A stretch of 55,287 bases of DNA, counting the filler, from Circinaria calcarea (Eukaryota), in NCBI GenBank assembly GCA_051942165.1. It is 4 parts of 4 records of this genome, joined end to end, with 100 filler letters (N's around TTAATTAATTAA, not from the genome) between each part and the next. Parts side by side here need not be neighbours in the genome. Positions count along the whole stretch, not along the records: positions 41,564 to 55,287 come from JAVECS010000477.1; 3 more parts are not named here. One strand, written 5' to 3'. Position numbers and translations under genes: made by a program. A model generated the notes under the pieces. That model was not told where the DNA came from. It worked only from the letters and a program-made list of their open reading frames with translations, and made no database searches. How positions within the stretch are numbered: position 1 is the stretch's first letter; each line of letters begins with the position of its first letter. This document shows positions 46,607-55,287 of the stretch, piece after piece.

Positions 46607-49600
46607 ATGCCAGCTATTCGAAACAAGGTGCCCGTGGGCTCAGCGCAATGGATCATGGAAGAGAGGGAGCAAGTTGCACTATTCAGAGAACAAGAAGCGG
46701 AGGACTTTGCCTTCTCGGCGCGCAATGAGATTGAATGGCTCAACGAGCACATGGCCGAAATATTCAGCAACAATGGAGTGTAGGATAAGATGAAGTTGAG
46801 GGTAGTGAGCTAGAGCTGACCTGTGAATAGGAATGTCACGGAGATCTTCAAGACACCAGGAAAGCTTAGGGGCAAGACGCCTCGCACAACAAGAAAGCGG
46901 AATCCATTGGCAACTCGAGCGGTACGTTTAATGCTGCTCAGGTGCTGTACTATATCTAATGAGCTGTACAGCCACTCACGGACATTTTCTCTGCCACTAT
47001 CCTATCGAACATCAGCCCTTCACGTGGTCAATCTCTGTTTGAAGAATCCAAGAAAAGCCCAGTCATCGACCGCCATGTGCCAGTGGAACCGGAACTTCAA
47101 GAAACGACCCAATCAACGGGCAAAGAGGACTACGACTCCGGATACCATGGAACATCTGGGGATGAGATGGAAGTCGATGACGTCTTACAGTCAACCGCAA
47201 CAATAAATGAATTACCTACAATCTCTGAGCCTATGCTTATTGACCCTCCTGCCATACAGGAAAATGAGAGGCGGCAGCCTTCTGAAGAGCAAACGATCAC
47301 CGAAGGGTCCTTTCTTTCCGCAAAAGATGACCTTTCAACGAGGGATGCCAGTAAATGCGCCCCGCTAGAACTTATACAGCAACCACAAGATGTACAAGAG
47401 CAAGAGCAGCAGCACCTCAAGGACAGGTCCAGTTCACCTAAAGCTGCAGACGCTGTAAATTGTACCATATCAGAGGCATTGCCGAGTCTAATTTCTCCGG
47501 AAATAATACCCCAGGTCGAGGAGAACGAAGAAGACAGACAATCCCTTCTTCATGAGGATCCTGAACTTGCTCCTTCTCATACGCCTTCTGACGGCTCCAG
47601 CCCTGCGAAACCCATGGTTCGAAAGAGTAGTCTAACATTTGCATCACTGCCAGCACGGGAGCCACTAACAACGAAGAAAAGTATTGGAGCACGTGTCTCG
47701 AGAACAAGTCACCTGGATCAATCGAAGTCTGCCATGGCCGGCCGAGGAAGTTACTTCGGTCGTTATGCGGGCGCCAAAACTTTGGGTAACGGTCGTCAAC
47801 CAGAGTACATTGACGAACCGGAAGACGAGGATGCGATGGATTTGGATGAAGAAGAAAGACCACAACCTACGCGGGAAGAATCCGACGGTGACGGAAAGAC
47901 GGCCATATTACACAACAAATCCTCAACCCAGCGACTACACGATCGCATAAACATGTTGGGGCAGACACAAACAGCAAGACCCAACAAATCAATTTCAGGA
48001 ATCGTCCCATCTGCACCTCAGCCCAGTTATCCAGAGCTACCGAAGCCAGACAATGAAAACTTGCGGGCCAGGGAGCAGTCAGTTCTACATGATACAAGCA
48101 ATAACGCCACAGTTACAAATGAAGACGATGACGATGATTGGATCAAGCCGCCTCCCGGCCAATTAAATCCCTCGAATCGTCTTCTGCTAGTTAAAAATGG
48201 ATCCCTTGACGTTATGGAGGAGAACAGTGGGAAAGATGGTATTAATGGCGATAATCCTGGACTAGGACCTCATGAGAGACCAAACGAGAGGCAGTCTTCC
48301 CCTCTGCGGCCAACCGAAAAAATAGAATATCCAGCAGCGAAGTCTGGACACAAGAAATCGGTTTCGACTACCATACCTACATCACCTATGAAGCTCTTAC
48401 CCAACCCAGAGATAAATCGTCACAAAAAGGCGGTTTCCGTGTCAATTCCAAGTACGCAACCAGTGACCTCTACAACGCCTGCTGGGAAACCAATCGCCAA
48501 GACACATCACGAGGGACCTTTGACTGCCTCAAAGTCCAAGTTACAATCAATTATGAAATCTGCTCGCGGCCTTTTTACAAGCAGTGCAGGGGTTTCTGCA
48601 CAGGCGAAATTGGAGACTCTGTCACCATCCTCGAGAACTCGCAGTAAAACACAAGCTCCCAATGATGGGCTGCCTACTAATACGTCTAATTTGAGCCATT
48701 CGCTGTACCCAAACCTTCCGGGCGAAATGCCGACCACCGCAACCATCGATCAAGCCAGGGGACCTGAGGGTCGCAGATTGCGGAGCTCCACAGAAAAGAA
48801 GGAAAGGGTAATGGGTATTGAGGTAAAGGAGCGACAGAAACCAGAGCTTGAGGTCGAACGGGAACGAAACCATCCGCTTCACAAGGGCTATCACAACCAA
48901 AAGCCACGAACGGGAATCACTACTACTCAAAATGGGTCAGAGATGGAGATTGAAACCAATCTGCCGAAAGGAGCGTCAAAACCAACCAGGCAAAGTCCTA
49001 GGCAGCTCCAGAAATCCAAGGAGGCTGAGAAACTACCCGAAGCTTACGAGTTTCCAGCAAATGCTATGCAAGCCAGTGGGACTTTGGAGTCAATGGGCCC
49101 ACCTCCCTCTCGAACTCAAGCCTATCCTTCTCAGATGCAAAAACCCAAAGAGCTACGAAGGCCACTCAAGCCTGCCAAGGAGCCTTTGGCTAAGCCAAAA
49201 CCTCAACCAGTTGCTATCAGGGTAGGAACATTGTCACAAAGAATACCTCTGACGAATGCTGCACTCTCTTCAAGCTTACAAGATTCGTTACCGCCAACTC
49301 AAGCTAAGCAGCCCACATTGGCCAAGAAACCGAGTACCGCTTCTTCACAGACATCCATTTCTACCACCAGCTTCAAGACCTCAGTCTCCTCTGTACCAAC
49401 GAAGCCGAAGGCTTTGATTGCCGCGGAACGAAAGAAGGAACAGGTATGTTCATTAGAAGGGTCTTCATATAGACTATACTGATCAAGCTTCTAGGATGAG
49501 AAGGAGGCTATGCGTAAGGCCGAACACAAGCGTGATATCGAACGAAAAAGAATCGCACAACAGGAGGAGGTACAACGACGTGAACTGCAACAACGCCAAG

Positions 49601-50806
49601 AGGCTGAGAAACAGAGGGAAATGGAACGCTCAATAACTGTTGAGGACCCTAATAAAGCAGCCAAGAAACAAACAATTGAGAAGAGACGCTTAGAGCTCCT
49701 CAAAAAGGAGCAACAGCGCAATCCACAACGACCTGTCAATGATCTTGTAAGTTATAGCACCATGGATTCACGATTGTGACTAATTTGCAGGCTCACGCCT
49801 TACAACAGGAGAGGATGCAAGCTCCTGGACCTTCGTATCGAGGGGAGCTGGGAGGAGGAAGACCCGTGTCGAAGGTCAATAGTATGCAGGATTTCCCAAG
49901 GCCACCTCCGAATCAATTTGCGCCCAATCCCGCCAAGCCCCCTTTAAAAAGAACATTCGAACCAGACCATGACGATGAGCTTCTGGGACCGGGCCGAGTA
50001 CAAGGTGGTCAGACTTTTCAACAATATGATCAAAAACGACGACGGACAAACGACGAAGAAGTATATGAGGTACCTACACGACCAACTATGGAACCTCCTA
50101 TTCGACAATCAAACATTCACAAGGTACGTAACTTCCAGAAAGTTAGGGATAATGAACTTACAACTCCTAGAATGTGCCGAAATCCTCAGTTTTCGCTAAT
50201 CATTACACTACCGCACCGCCACCCCCAAATGCTCACCATCCAGCACAGTCGCTGTTGAAAACATCGACCATCAACCAAGCCTACCAACAACATTCATATA
50301 ATCAGGGCGCTCGAACTGCTCATCCAATGAACACAGCACAGTTCAGGGATGGTAAGATACCCTTTGCCGAGGCGCCTAATCCGCCACCGGCATCTCACAA
50401 GACACCCCTCCCATCTAAATCGGCAATAGCCGGTGTAATGAAATCTTCACCACTTTTCAACACTGACAGCATTCTCCTGGAGGAGCCTATGACAGACAGC
50501 GAAGACGAAGATTCCGATGTAGAAAGGAAGAAGAAACAAAATCGACCGGACTGGGTGCTAACCCCAGTGTTGACAAGAACCCTTATCGACCAAGATAATG
50601 TTGATACGGACGCCTTATTTGGTCCTCCCCAACCGCCCAACATGGAAGAAATGTTTAAGGATAAGAGCCGACATCATCGGTTCCGATCGCGGACGAGCAG
50701 CGCCAACTGGGGCGGGCAGGACAGATTGACAGAAGAGGAAATCAGAGCGGATCTCGCCGCCCGGGAAAGGATGAGGCGGGATGGAGGATGGACCTACGGG
50801 TTGTAA
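46607..50806 (+). CDS. INCENP: Inner centromere protein (INCENP/Sli15/Pic1); five probable introns
   Basis: N-terminal VGSAQWIMEERE...EWLNEHMAEIF..FKTPGKLRGKTP, a charged coiled coil, and the C-terminal IN-box PDW...LFGP..MEEMF..RFRSRTSSANW. Confidence 0.92.
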
Positions 50807-52006
50807 GATAGGAATGCATTCGCCTGGTTGGTGTTCTTTGGTTTACTCATTCGGCGTTGTGCATATTGGGCCAAAGGGCGTTAGATGATGGACTGGTGGG
50901 TTGACACTGGATGGTTGGATGGTTTCAGGCTTTCTTTTTCTTTTGGGACATGCATGTCTCTTCGCCGTTCGTTAGTTCCCGCAGAAGGTTCTGCAAGATG
51001 GTGGAGCTGAATAAATGCATTGAAGCGTTTGAACTTTTTCTTAGTCCGAAACAGAGCTTCAAAGAATCGCAACGATGATGGGTATCTCCGCCTTTATGTG
51101 ATGTCTGCGCCTTTTTTGTATCTGATATGTATTAAAGTTATCCCGGCATTACCTTACCGTCTGGATGCAAGGCCTGGATTAAGCAAACTCGGCTTAATCC
51201 CTTTGACCTTACCCACCTCTTTCTTACAAAAGATCAAAGTTACTTCTTGAAACACTTGGACCAGAATGCTCTTTCTGGAGTATCCAGGTCTCGGGGTTTA
51301 TCGCGGGGCTATCAGGATCTGTCAGGCATCACCGAATTTCTACTTTGCATCTGGTGCGTTTCATGTCATTTACTCTTCTATGCATTGGGCTCTACAAGCT
51401 GGGCGTCAAAGCACTCATGCGTGCAGCAGGCCTTTCACAGCCTTTGGTGAGTCTCAAGAATGGGGTCCCTTCGGGCGATACCGCACTGTTTCAGCTTCTT
51501 TGACTTTCAGGTGAATCAGATGCCATTCGGTTCTCTTGTCTGCGTCGATTTTTTCTATCCGCTGTTCTTGTCTTACTGTGGAGGATATAGGATGCTCCGC
51601 TATGCTGCTAAGGTATAGGCAAAGACGCTGTCGAGAATGGGTTGCGAGGGCCTGAATAGTGAAGAATCAAAGGGTATATAGCATGAACTGACTGCTGCAG
51701 TATCATGCATATATAGGAGACGTATTAGGACCGGTTTCAGTATTGTATTTCTGACTACTATCCTGCTCTGCTATGTATCCAAAAGAGTGTATATATGTGT
51801 GTAGGAGTCCTCCATGCCTGCCTGCCCCTTCTTTTATGCGCGCCCAGTCATTAGTCGCCTTGGCTCCACCACATTACGTTGGTCTAAACTTGCTTGTCGT
51901 GTTGCGAATATAAAGGCACTATCTCCTGGGATTACTTCTTGTGTAGGAACTTCAACCGCATCAATAAACAGACGCATGCTATTCTCAGAAATCGCTGCTT
52001 GATAAT

Positions 52007-53567
52007 ATGCCTGAATCTGAAACGGGTACGTGATCTTGCTGACATAATCCGAATAAGACTGAAGAGTATATCCAGAGCCCGACGCGCACCTGGCTGCCTG
52101 GTCAGATCTTGACTGCTCTCTCGTATCTTCCTCTACACTTCGTAAGGCAAAGGATACGATCCTGATTGGCCGTGACTGGTGCCGAGAATCACTCCGGATA
52201 TCCTTCCAGCGTACGATTCGAGTTCCAGACAACCATGGAGCTTCGCAACTGCCTCCAAGCCTTGGAACGCTCCCTTTGTATCCGACTGCTTTGTACAAGG
52301 AAAGGATGTCGAGCCAGATGGCAGCTAAAGGTGGAGTGTTCTTTCCCATGCACCGTAAGTCTCCGTTTTATGCTCAGGTCGCGTTTTGGCTAAAAGGGTA
52401 TACAATAGAACGGGAAGCCATGTGGATCAACTTCGAAACCTCGCGCTCTTTTGCCATTAAAATTTATTTGGGCGGTGTGAACGCCATTTCCGGAGAGCCG
52501 GCTATTGAGGACATGGCCACGAGGTTGCGACGACTAGAACTCCTCAAGAACGGTAAGTCGATCCAGGACTATGTCGTGACGCCACAGCAGCTCTGGCTTG
52601 ATGGCGTTGCTAGTGAAACTGGTCAGGTTCGACAGTTTGTGGCAATGCCCACAGGGTCTGGATACTCTGTTGAAGCCCAGATCACAGGACAAGACCTTGT
52701 GGGTGGTCTACAATTCGAGGTTACGCCGCAAGTCATACCGCCTCGTATCGTACGAGATCAGGCAGATGAATACCCAATAAGTATCAAGACATTGACTGGC
52801 AAGATCACCAATTTGGAAGTTTACCCGGAACTTAGTATTCAAGGCGTAAAAACACTCTACGAGGAACAGGAAGGGATTCCTCCGGAGCAACAACGATTGA
52901 TATTTGCCGGAAAGCAGCTGGAAGATGGTACGTTTACACCACCGAGTCATTCATAATTCCGAGCTCATCAGTTTAAGCTCAAACCTTGGCACATTGCAAC
53001 ATCAACAAGGTCAGTAGAGTGTTTAGAGCCGTGCTCGTCTAATCCTTCTGATTCATTATGAAGGGATCGAGACTGCACATTGTCCTTCGCCTTCGCGGGG
53101 GAGGTGACTTGTTGCGCGACGATCGTCGTACTCAGTTGGAGATGGGCATCGCACCCGGCGGACTAATCAAGCAGAATATAAAGAAGGACACCTCCGCCGC
53201 TGATCGCTGGGATCGCGATCGCACCATCATCTTCAACGTTCAGATACTCAACTCGGAATCGTTCCACCGGGTCACCGGCATGCCACCTCCGGAAACACCG
53301 ATATCTGCCAAGACCTACTCGGATCTGGGCCTACCGTTCTACCAGCTCTACGAGGAGGCACCTGCCATCACGGGGAATTTTGGAGATCTCAAGTCCGTCA
53401 AGACGATGGACAAGATGCACGGACAAGGTGGAGAGGACGACGCGCAAGACGAGTCTTCGCACCAGAATCCCATCATCGTCCTTGATCCCGGATGTGCTCG
53501 ACTGTCTTTCAGACCTGTCTCCGAGCTTGAAGAGCAGATGAGGAAGATGAGGGGAGTGCAGTTCTAG
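52007..53567 (+). CDS. Fungal protein with an internal ubiquitin-like domain; introns include 52355-52408, 52928-52977, 53010-53063
   Basis: N-part [49 protein letters not shown], then the Ubl [35 protein letters not shown], then the C-part [22 protein letters not shown]. Confidence 0.85.
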
Positions 53568-54134
53568 GCCGATCCGGATGAGGTACCATTGAACTCCCAT
53601 GCGAGCTGCTTCAAGGGACGACTGGCGCGAGCTACTTTGACATATGCGGGCACGGATGCGGGTGGGACGACCAAAAGAATCAATGGGATGGAGAGGTGCG
53701 CCCTAAGCGCAGATCATTGCTAGTTTACCTTAAGTCGGGGCCTCCGACCGAGTGTTCGAAAACGGGGAATGCAGTCATGGCTGGCCCGAGATCCGCACAA
53801 TTGCGCTTTGCTTGCCCTGAAGCACACAACTAAGCTCTAGAAATACTACATACTGGTATCTTCCAAGGATGCCATGCCCATGAGGTATTGTGATAATTAT
53901 CCTGAATCACTGCCATTGTTATGATAACAAACCGAACCCGAATGAAATTTGTCCCCTCCATCCTCGGCATACCACACCTCGCCCCAGACCCTTGGTGGCG
54001 TCATTAGCGTCCGCCCTTAGCTCGGCAAGATCCCTGGTCATCCGGGGGGTGGCTGTTACTCGCGTGACTTTAACCGGATGCGTGGCCTCAACGCAGACGG
54101 TTTACTCCAATAAACTGCACTTTGACTGCACTCG

Positions 54135-55287
54135 ATGGCCCACTATCCCGAGTATAATCAGGCCGCTACCACGCTCTACCACGCCCACGTTCAGGCCCAG
54201 GCTCAGGCTCAGGCTCAAGCTCAGGCTCAAGCTCAGGCCCAGGCTCAGGCACCACCCGAGCAATACTACCCCGATCCCCATCTCCTCTCAGGCACCGGCA
54301 CCGCCAATCACTTCCAGCCGTCACATGCCACCCTGAATCATGCCTTGCACCCGCGACAGCAGCTCTATGGCGGAGAAGCAGGAACGATGCCTCCGCCCGC
54401 CAACGTGGGGGCAAGCATGAGTGCTCCTCATCCGAGTACCCCTGGCGCTGGTGGGACCATCATGTCGCCAGGGATGTTGCAGCAGCATCAGCAGCATCAA
54501 CAGCACCAGCAACAGCAGCAGTACCGGCAGCCGTACCAAACTCAAATGCGCAATAGTGGGTTGGACGCTTTCTTGAATTCTCTAGTGCACATCCCTGACG
54601 GTTCCTAGAACATCTTTCGCTGATGTGTCCATCATCAAAATAGATCAGCAGACGCCTCCGGCTACCATGGCTTCTGCATACCCGCAAGCTCACTCTGCCT
54701 TCGCAGCGCCCTCCAGCAATCCATCTTTCTACTCGCAGCCGGCCCCGACTACCTTTCCTCCTGCCTACAACCAACCTTTGCTTTCCTCCTCACCCTCACC
54801 ACACTCTTCAATGGCAGCCGTCTCGGTCTCGAACCCACCTCCTCCACCTCCTCAGTCCTATCCAGCTCCCCAGTCACAAGTCCTGTCACAAGTTCAGCCA
54901 CAAACCCTACCACCAACCCAGGCTACACCCCTTCCAAATCAGTCCACCCCACCTCACCAACCGCCGCCGCCGCCACAGATCAACCTTCAGCAACCGGCCC
55001 GCCCCGCCATTCCCCTTACCCCAAAACCGATCCTCCAACCCCCTCTCTCGCCCACCTCCGCAAAACTCGAGTCACAGCGGGTTACTGCTTTGCTAGAAAT
55101 AAATCGAGCATTGCTGCATGAAATCGTCCTCTTACAAGCTGCCGGTCGAGCAGGTGGGCCAGCTCAAACGCCAGCACAGCAAGGTCAGCCACCAGGCCAA
55201 GCCTCACCGGCTGGAGCGGAGGGAGATGCTGATGCGACGAAAGAAGGCGGCGATGGTAAGGATGCGGCCAGCAGTACAGATGGATCG
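54135..55287 (+). CDS. Gln/Pro-rich protein with the start of an SSXT (SS18/Snf11-like) domain, truncated at the window end
   Basis: (QA)n and polyQ tracts. After a probable intron near 54557-54643 the frame reads ...SQRVTALLEINRALLHEIVLLQAAG, resembling the SS18 N-terminal homology helix. Confidence 0.55.
54193..54252 (+). repeat. Coding hexanucleotide microsatellite (CARGCN)x10 encoding (QA)10
   Basis: caggcccaggctcaggctcaggctcaagctcaggctcaagctcaggcccaggctcaggca. Confidence 0.9.

Follow-up and report, generated by a model that had tools for sequence, protein, structure and literature searches.

An internal ubiquitin-like unit with a conserved processing tail in the linker of a scaffold protein from Circinaria calcarea and other ascomycetes

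The window considered here is a stretch of 55,287 nucleotides of Circinaria calcarea DNA (assembly GCA_051942165.1), filler letters included. The subject is one gene on its plus strand, at 52007-53567, in the part taken from record JAVECS010000477.1. The encoded protein, of about 450 residues, consists in order of an N-subdomain, a copy of ubiquitin ending in LRLRGG, a glycine, a short linker and a C-subdomain. The two flanks are predicted to be the halves of one beta-sandwich scaffold rather than two independent domains. Ubiquitin fusions and integral ubiquitin-like (Ubl) domains are already known as kinds. What is new is a ubiquitin placed internally, its processing tail conserved, within what is modelled as one fold that bacteria make uninterrupted. 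The reading tentatively favoured here is that the chain is nicked after G76 of the unit, between positions 53102 and 53103. The N-chain would then end in ubiquitin-GG, the C-chain would start with Gly, and both would be held by a shared sheet. Full-text searches, whose coverage excludes subscription journals and supplements, turned up no publication on the family.

The Ubl of the window protein aligns to ubiquitin without a single insertion or deletion, and 47 of its 76 residues are identical (62%; the reference is the unit from the polyubiquitin matches). Unchanged are L8, I44, V70, R42, K6, K11, K27, K48, K63 and the entire tail 71-76, which includes R72, the specificity residue for the activating enzyme E1; K29 is substituted by L and K33 by Q. 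An earlier note on this DNA had claimed a kept L8/I44/V70 patch and lysines at positions 6, 11, 27, 48 and 63, and the gapless alignment bears this out. The part of the unit encoded by exon 3 alone matches the Pfam family PF00240 at E 5.4e-14 (52.1 bits against a cut-off of 25.4), which is far beyond chance, and the homologues P0179 and P0142 reach 75.2 and 85.6 bits. The fold was assessed on a homologue rather than on the window protein: the AlphaFold2 model of P0179 gives the unit a beta-grasp fold with a predicted local distance difference test (pLDDT) value of about 95. Compared with solved ubiquitin chains, this model scores Z 15-16 (for 7r70_A, Z 15.8 with a root-mean-square deviation (rmsd) of 0.7 Å and 75 residues aligned). 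The unit is internal, as 220 scaffold residues lie N-terminal to it. Its N-terminal border in the window protein carries neither GG nor another known site, and its C-terminal border reads LRLRGG and then Gly.

The earlier note had tied its proposal to conservation of the GG in homologues. On an alignment-based count, GG stands at positions 75-76 in 113 of 156 family Ubls. Another 16 of the 156 are gapped at this place (fragments or mis-modelled genes), and among the 140 rows ungapped there each Gly is retained in 87%. The pair is followed by a third glycine in 99 of the 113 GG-keeping Ubls and by Ser, Ala, Tyr, Arg, Val, Cys or Asp in the remaining 14; Pro is never found (0/113). Identity to ubiquitin is 0.72 over residues 72-76 against a mean of 0.50 over all 76 positions of the 156 Ubls, and it is 0.80 in the 140 ungapped rows. 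By this measure G75 and G76 rank 10th-11th of the 76 positions. These tail residues of ubiquitin lie outside the fold and are structurally dispensable. Seventeen of the GG-keeping Ubls are identical to ubiquitin at no more than 30 of 76 positions. Two members, P0157 and P0128 (the cluster of the latter includes an Ilyonectria genome protein), carry polyubiquitin-like head-to-tail units, in which GG is followed directly by the methionine of the next unit (GG-M). In members with several beta-grasp units, the extra ones diverged, RGG is kept only in the unit adjoining the C-subdomain. In public gene models of close relatives the Ubl is often mis-spliced, through intron retention or exon skipping (P0129, P0135, P0172, P0228, P0176 and P0181), and automated surveys will therefore under-count intact GG tails.

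Such conservation bears on the main rival of the cleavage reading, an integral and uncleaved Ubl. Here the unit would act as a docking module, for example for proteasome receptors or other ubiquitin-binding domains, in the manner of the Rad23/Dsk2-type shuttles, the scaffold would bind a client and the GGG would be a flexible hinge. This alternative is possible, though on balance doubtful. It has no ready place for a tail 72-76 conserved above the Ubl average and never followed by Pro, as integral Ubl domains as a rule have lost the di-glycine, and we know of no rationale for head-to-tail GG-M tandems in uncleaved ones. Conservation of the hydrophobic patch is moderate in the family (L8 0.73; I, V or L at position 44 in 132 of 156; K27 0.84), and paralogues with a degenerate Ubl and without GG persist. 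The RING and ZZ fusions described below fit an adaptor, and the cytoplasmic protease gene adjoining some bacterial relatives would fit client delivery. It is hard to see, however, how an exposed LRLRGG-Gly with a disordered leaving group would be protected from deubiquitinases.

The predicted structure of the flanks bears on what a cut would do. The scaffold core comprises an N-subdomain of about 200 residues and a C-subdomain, with a variable linker between them, and the C-block invariably opens with (E)MG[IL]AAGG. The window model matches the hidden Markov models (HMMs) of both subdomains and was placed in the family tree. P0176, a Ubl-less row (probably a mis-spliced model), is predicted to fold as a single unit with pLDDT 80.4 and a predicted template modelling score (pTM) of 0.80; its C-block strands 220-257 have block-mean pLDDT values of about 81-91. 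In P0179, the N part (1-215) and the C part (297-447) were modelled as separate chains. They reached 0.89 in the interaction prediction score from aligned errors (ipSAE), against 0.00 for the best control. Their pairing involves 333-371 contacts, on which the runs agree in at least 73%, with a partner pLDDT of at least 60, and strand 188-194 is predicted to pair with 324-334. Of 78 solved complexes, 51 pass the ipSAE mark applied, as do 2 of 108 mismatched pairs (for eukaryotes, 39 of 65 and 2 of 126). As the two halves are parts of one chain, a passing score is what a single domain predicts. A memorised template is an unlikely source of the score, since no solved relative of the scaffold was found. 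Right after the GGG of P0179, residues 293-309 have pLDDT below 50 and are disordered in the AlphaFold2 model. The flanks had earlier been described as ordered regions of about 200 and 150 residues; this stands in part, the last ~100 residues of the C-flank being mostly of low confidence in the homologue model.

The scaffold matched no Pfam or NCBIfam family, and the flanks contain no UBA or other Pfam domain at E ≤ 1. Against the PDB, by sequence or profile, it gave 0 matches at E ≤ 10, and Foldseek with the Ubl-less model returned nothing at E ≤ 1e-3, a lack of match that does not make the fold new. The best VIA-align result of the same model (Z 4.6, rmsd 4.4 Å, 127 aligned residues) is below the noise level of the tool. 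These fold searches used the Ubl-less family row; the full-length model returned ubiquitin chains. The sole PADLOC row for the scaffold is SspD, at E 0.037. A cryptic cis-acting peptidase within the scaffold was considered and found no support: the invariant columns hold no conserved Cys/His/Ser set, and there is no glutamic-peptidase match (structural comparison below noise).

The earlier note had suggested that the flanks occur contiguously, without a Ubl, in some bacteria. The N-block alignment was scanned against one genome per prokaryote species, and 24 bacterial loci were found (L001-L024; for example, L012:2791-3762), with 39-50% identity over the N-block. The suggestion proved right: in all 24 loci one open reading frame (ORF) contains both blocks, matched at E 1e-23 to 1e-50 for the N-block and 1e-18 to 1e-30 for the C-block, and a Ubl is matched in none of the 24 even at E ≤ 10. 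As the HMMs derive from fungal sequences, it is the matches in bacteria that provide an independent test. The loci belong to Acidobacteriota, Chloroflexota, Myxococcota (including a 9-Mb Polyangiales chromosome), Planctomycetota, Pseudomonadota, Binatota, Gemmatimonadota, Actinomycetota and one metagenome-assembled genome labelled Bacillota. The bacterial linker between the blocks has 25-70 residues and is often Pro-rich, and it is exactly there that the fungal ubiquitin sits. Motifs common to the bacterial and fungal scaffolds are QREAMW, QDY..P.Q.WLDG, [IV]RQFVAMP, MG[LI].AGG, PP.TP and LPWF.LYDE. The bacterial family comprises at least 8000 sequence clusters. The best 120 of these carry no Pfam domain, and the named ones are called 'hypothetical protein'; neighbours of the bacterial scaffold in the ESM Atlas are likewise unannotated, and the loci themselves are annotated as 'hypothetical' or 'integral membrane protein'.

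In eukaryotes, the N-block served alone as the query, as exon 3 including half of the Ubl matched polyubiquitins only. It returned 545 homologues at E ≤ 1e-3, and all the named ones listed belong to Pezizomycotina, with labels that include 'ubiquitin-like domain-containing' and 'integral membrane protein'. An N-block profile matched 3212 representative clusters among 1.84 billion at E ≤ 1e-3, of which the best 150 were examined. Sorted by architecture, 249 family proteins comprise 127 with N-block, one Ubl and C-block, 6 with two Ubls between the blocks, 38 with both blocks and no Ubl match, and a remainder of 78, mostly fragments (45 with N-block and Ubl and no C-block, 33 with the N-block only). 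Both blocks are thus present in 171 of the 249 proteins of the fungal list. The ubiquitin copy in the linker spans a broad clade of mostly filamentous ascomycetes, the insertion being common to several Pezizomycotina classes, including a Pezizales member. The linker is tolerant of length, from the 25-70 residues of bacteria up to about 400 in fungal paralogues.

In a tree of 126 scaffolds, 23 bacterial rows and 5 rows of unknown origin split from 98 eukaryote rows with a Shimodaira-Hasegawa-like approximate likelihood ratio test (SH-aLRT) value of 96; the tree has no outgroup and its direction is not readable. Breadth in bacteria against a narrow range in eukaryotes makes transfer from bacteria to fungi the economical reading. 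Five metagenome proteins with long linkers (P0356, P0358, P0352, P0333 and P0347), one of which has a ZZ finger, group with the bacterial rows instead of the fungal clade. The Ubl form is also recorded, as P0369 and P0299, in an assembly of the raphidophyte alga Heterosigma akashiwo (a partial protein) and in the basidiomycete Suillus weaverae, records which could reflect a wider range, gene transfer or contamination. Many fungal members, that of the window included, end in Phe, and many bacterial members end in D-G-[DE]-W; such terminal aromatic residues may be a docking motif.

The gene model underlying the window protein was built from reading frame and homology. It has five exons, with the ATG at 52007 and the TAG stop at 53565-53567. 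The exons are 52007-52025, 52067 or 52076 to 52354, 52409-52927, 52978-53009 and 53064-53567. The introns, 52026-52066 (or -52075), 52355-52408, 52928-52977 and 53010-53063, are all of the GT..AG type and 41-54 nt long. The features are as follows.

52007..52025, plus strand: exon 1, start codon, 6 codons and 1 base; the sole upstream ATG that reaches the conserved frame, via a GTACGT donor.
52026..52075 (50 nt) or 52026..52066 (41 nt), plus strand: probable intron 1, GTACGT...AG with a CTGAC branch-like motif.
52076..52354, plus strand: exon 2, the first half of the scaffold N-subdomain up to FFPMH; in ORF 52063-52956, aligning to fungal and bacterial homologues.
52355..52408, plus strand: intron 2, 54 nt, GTAAGT..TAG; its removal restores the family motif PM[YH]QREAMW.
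52409..52770, plus strand: exon 3, part one, the second half of the N-subdomain to the linker RIVRDQADE; query of the homologue search.
52771..52927, plus strand: exon 3, part two, Ubl residues 1-52 and the first base of codon 53; PF00240 match.
52928..52977, plus strand: intron 3, 50 nt, GTACGT..AAG.
52978..53009, plus strand: micro-exon, 32 nt, from the remainder of codon 53 to Ubl residue 63; gapless against ubiquitin 53-63.
53010..53063, plus strand: intron 4, 54 nt, GTCAGT..AAG.
53064..53102, plus strand: start of exon 5, Ubl residues 64-76; from the ORF and the ubiquitin alignment.
53103..53141, plus strand: Gly77 and a 13-residue linker, the putative leaving-group end for deubiquitinases; family GG-Gly, homologue pLDDT below 50.
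53142..53567, plus strand: scaffold C-subdomain (NVQILNS, PPETPI, LPFYQLYEE, KSV) with a low-confidence tail ending in Phe, then TAG; from the C-domain HMM and alignments.

The spliced length is 1353 or 1362 nt, depending on the choice of the first acceptor, with one stop only, at the end. An acceptor at 52066 or 52075 gives a protein of 453 or 450 residues, and the frame is kept either way; LRLRGG falls at residues 294-299 or 291-296, respectively, with 154 residues C-terminal to the GG. Exon 1 and the first acceptor (exon 2 starting at 52067 or 52076) are the least certain part of the model, and homologues do not conserve the N-terminus. The earlier note had proposed that a complete 76-residue Ubl emerges through the 32-nt micro-exon at 52978-53009. 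This was confirmed by the three stop-to-stop ORFs in which the unit is readable (52063-52956, 52977-53042 and 53052-53567), by their joining with a single stop and by the gapless alignment to ubiquitin. Skipping of the micro-exon causes a frameshift with a stop 15 codons on, retention of intron 3 brings a stop after 10 codons, and the exon phases forbid in-frame skipping of the Ubl exons. The spliced protein is collinear with homologues over every junction. Database models of the nearest relatives (P0129, P0135, P0172 and P0228) show retained introns or skipped segments at matching places of the Ubl: in the lichen homologues P0172 and P0228, retained-intron text stands exactly at the site of intron 4, after Ubl residue 63. 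Several database gene models also keep an intron at the position of intron 2.

The gene model and the family distribution leave little room for the Ubl being a neutral relic or an annotation artefact, that is, a ubiquitin fragment drifting in the linker or a false join of genes, which is highly improbable. Within the scaffold, the linker is indeed the only region tolerant of any content. The insertion is nevertheless shared by several Pezizomycotina classes, the reading frame continues across a 32-nt micro-exon and conservation of the tail exceeds the Ubl average. The flanks, if halves of one fold, cannot be separate genes, which argues against a false join.

In eukaryotic cells, linear ubiquitin-X fusions are cleaved unless X is Pro. 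An N-terminal extension is no bar to such cleavage, as polyubiquitin is processed. The intact tail, the L8/I44/V70/R42/R72 surface, a following Gly and never Pro, and the disordered stretch after it together suggest that ubiquitin-specific proteases (USPs) probably cut the window protein. General USPs would act after G76, as in polyubiquitin and in the ubiquitin-ribosomal-protein precursors. Strands of the C-subdomain are modelled as woven into the sheet of the N-subdomain, and the products would remain a nicked two-chain scaffold; as the halves of one beta-sandwich are predicted to stay together, cleavage would nick the protein rather than split it. A free ubiquitin-GG would form the end of the N-chain, and Gly the start of the C-chain. 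The free tail would then be a candidate for conjugation, for docking or for release of a constraint on the scaffold. N-myristoylation of the N-terminal Gly left by a cut was considered and set aside, as the residues after GG show, by eye, no consistent pattern typical of that signal.

Several observations weigh against cleavage. The Ubl of the window protein has only 62% identity to ubiquitin, and Q2, F4 and T12, contact sites of some USPs, are altered. Across the family, 27 of the 156 Ubls lack GG or have it displaced, several of these rows differing only through an intron left in the model or a shift by one residue. The losses are dispersed on the tree, with 14 changes to account for 16 rows, and some are gene-model artefacts. 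As GG is lost in a minority of members, it is dispensable for the scaffold. In entire groups of fungal paralogues the Ubl is degenerate or missing and the linker is long and of low complexity; the core function of the scaffold therefore needs no cleavable unit. Conservation of the ubiquitin lysines is poor (K63 0.15, K29 0.10, K33 0.30 and K48 0.47). With K63 retained in 15% and K48 in 47%, a chain-building role equivalent to that of ubiquitin is no family trait. The structural evidence comes from the homologues P0179 and P0176, which are 46-50% identical overall to the window protein. Finally, the conservation of GGG could also reflect the need for a flexible hinge.

Two further alternatives start from the same site. 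In the first, the N-subdomain-ubiquitin-GG chain, with the C-subdomain bound to it non-covalently, would be charged by E1 and put on target lysines as a bulky modifier. The window protein retains R72, L73, R74, G75 and G76, which are well kept in the family, and N-terminally tagged ubiquitin is conjugation-competent in experiments. This use is nonetheless unlikely: it requires prior cleavage, itself a putative step, members without GG cannot work in this way, the Ubl lacks conserved acceptor lysines, and we know of no precedent for a modifier with an attached mass of about 35-45 kDa. In the second, the embedded ubiquitin would be a pseudo-substrate, a decoy or sensor of deubiquitinases, with the cut and the intact scaffold differing in activity. 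What speaks for this is general: a cleavable-looking site inside a single domain, where cutting could change the state of the scaffold. It is very improbable, given the many members without GG and given that ordinary expression would not titrate abundant deubiquitinases.

Hints to the role of the scaffold come from domain fusions and bacterial gene neighbours. A C-terminal RING is joined to the scaffold in P0339 and P0364 (Aaosphaeria and Bipolaris), a ZZ finger in P0347 and a SUMO-like unit in P0367 (E 7.9e-9). RanBP2/NZF-like fingers appear as weak Pfam matches in P0207 and as a motif recognised by eye in P0232 and P0150. The RING, ZZ and RanBP2-type fusions suggest a place for the scaffold within ubiquitin signalling. 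In bacteria, a gene for an astacin-like metzincin with a PPC domain lies directly downstream on the same strand in 7 of the 24 loci (L002, L003, L005, L007, L010, L016 and L019). These seven, from several phyla, fall within one tree subclade of eight, whose eighth member is L024; 16 other loci are without an astacin gene. Such a multi-phylum subclade of paired scaffold and astacin loci suggests a mobile two-gene cassette. Three translated astacin-like proteins have HEFGHAIGLxHEH intact and, by eye, no signal peptide. Other peptidase genes (M23, M20, S8) adjoin the scaffold in L001, L013, L012, L003 and L024, and a peptidase gene of any kind is adjacent in 11 of the 24 loci. Fusions and bacterial protease neighbours together suggest a role in regulated proteolysis or ubiquitin signalling, and are the first functional hints for a very large family with no relative in Pfam, NCBIfam or the PDB.

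As a speculation, the linker of the bacterial scaffold may be cut by the neighbouring metzincin. A wider scheme extends this: with the bacterial scaffold cut by the metzincin, the fungal ubiquitin would hand the cutting of the linker over to deubiquitinases, and the free ubiquitin-GG would then be attached by E1 and E2, making the protein a natural ubiquitin-like modifier of protein size or a self-tethering adaptor. Taken as a whole, this scheme has little probability. In a second recurring neighbourhood, genes of GNAT acetyltransferases adjoin the scaffold in L001, L013 and L017, and the two Anaerolineae loci among these, L001 and L013, have an M23 peptidase/PQQ-repeat gene on the downstream side.

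The neighbours of the gene in the window are of other kinds. Upstream, at 46963-50806 (plus strand), lies a gene for a long low-complexity protein whose C-terminal part matches the INCENP IN-box PF03941 at E 8.2e-15; it looks like an INCENP/Sli15-type gene unrelated to the gene of the Ubl-scaffold. Downstream, at 54126-55287 (plus strand) and past the window end, a gene encodes a Gln/Pro-rich low-complexity protein with no Pfam match. It contains an (AQ)n run from a CAGGCT repeat near 54195-54250 and likely a short intron near 54609-54650. A functional gene cluster was considered and rejected, the neighbours being this INCENP-like gene and this Q/P-rich one. Over the 5′ end of the Ubl-scaffold gene, an antisense ORF (51834-52367, minus strand; 177 residues stop-to-stop) has no Pfam match and is probably spurious.

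Set beside known systems, the family fits neither of the textbook classes, the ubiquitin fusion and the integral Ubl: the unit is internal, it interrupts what is predicted to be one fold and it keeps its tail in several fungal classes. The first class comprises the processed precursors, polyubiquitin, ubiquitin-eL40 and ubiquitin-eS31. As in these, more polypeptide continues directly after LRLRGG and opens with a residue other than Pro; the ubiquitin-eS31 precursor of fungi likewise has Gly at this position. Unlike these precursors, in which a near-identical ubiquitin is N-terminal and released free, the unit is internal and, in the window protein, 62% identical; it would stay joined to a 220-residue N-terminal partner, and it is predicted to interrupt one domain. 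The second class is represented by Rad23 and Dsk2/ubiquilin, whose Ubl domains are N-terminal, paired with a UBA and without di-glycine. The likeness is that of a beta-grasp as a permanent part of a larger protein, and a role as client adaptor is possible. The differences are that no UBA was matched, that the Ubl is internal and that LRLRGG is kept in most members.

Two further systems share single traits with the family. The first is ISG15/FAT10, which resembles it in that a chain larger than ubiquitin would end in LRGG after processing of a C-terminal extension. There, the N-terminal partner is another Ubl and the extension is short; here, the partner would be half of an unrelated beta-sandwich, and conjugation is hypothetical. 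The second is the polyprotein of cytopathic pestiviruses, in which host ubiquitin inserted in the middle of the chain provides a new C-terminal site for cellular ubiquitin hydrolases. The ubiquitin copy is likewise embedded within a polypeptide. The pestivirus insertions are sporadic viral recombinants, in contrast to an old, vertically inherited cellular family whose flanks are predicted to form one domain. Should cleavage occur, the protein would offer a natural example of maturation through nicking by deubiquitinases, and it would yield a ubiquitin C-terminus borne on a large folded partner.

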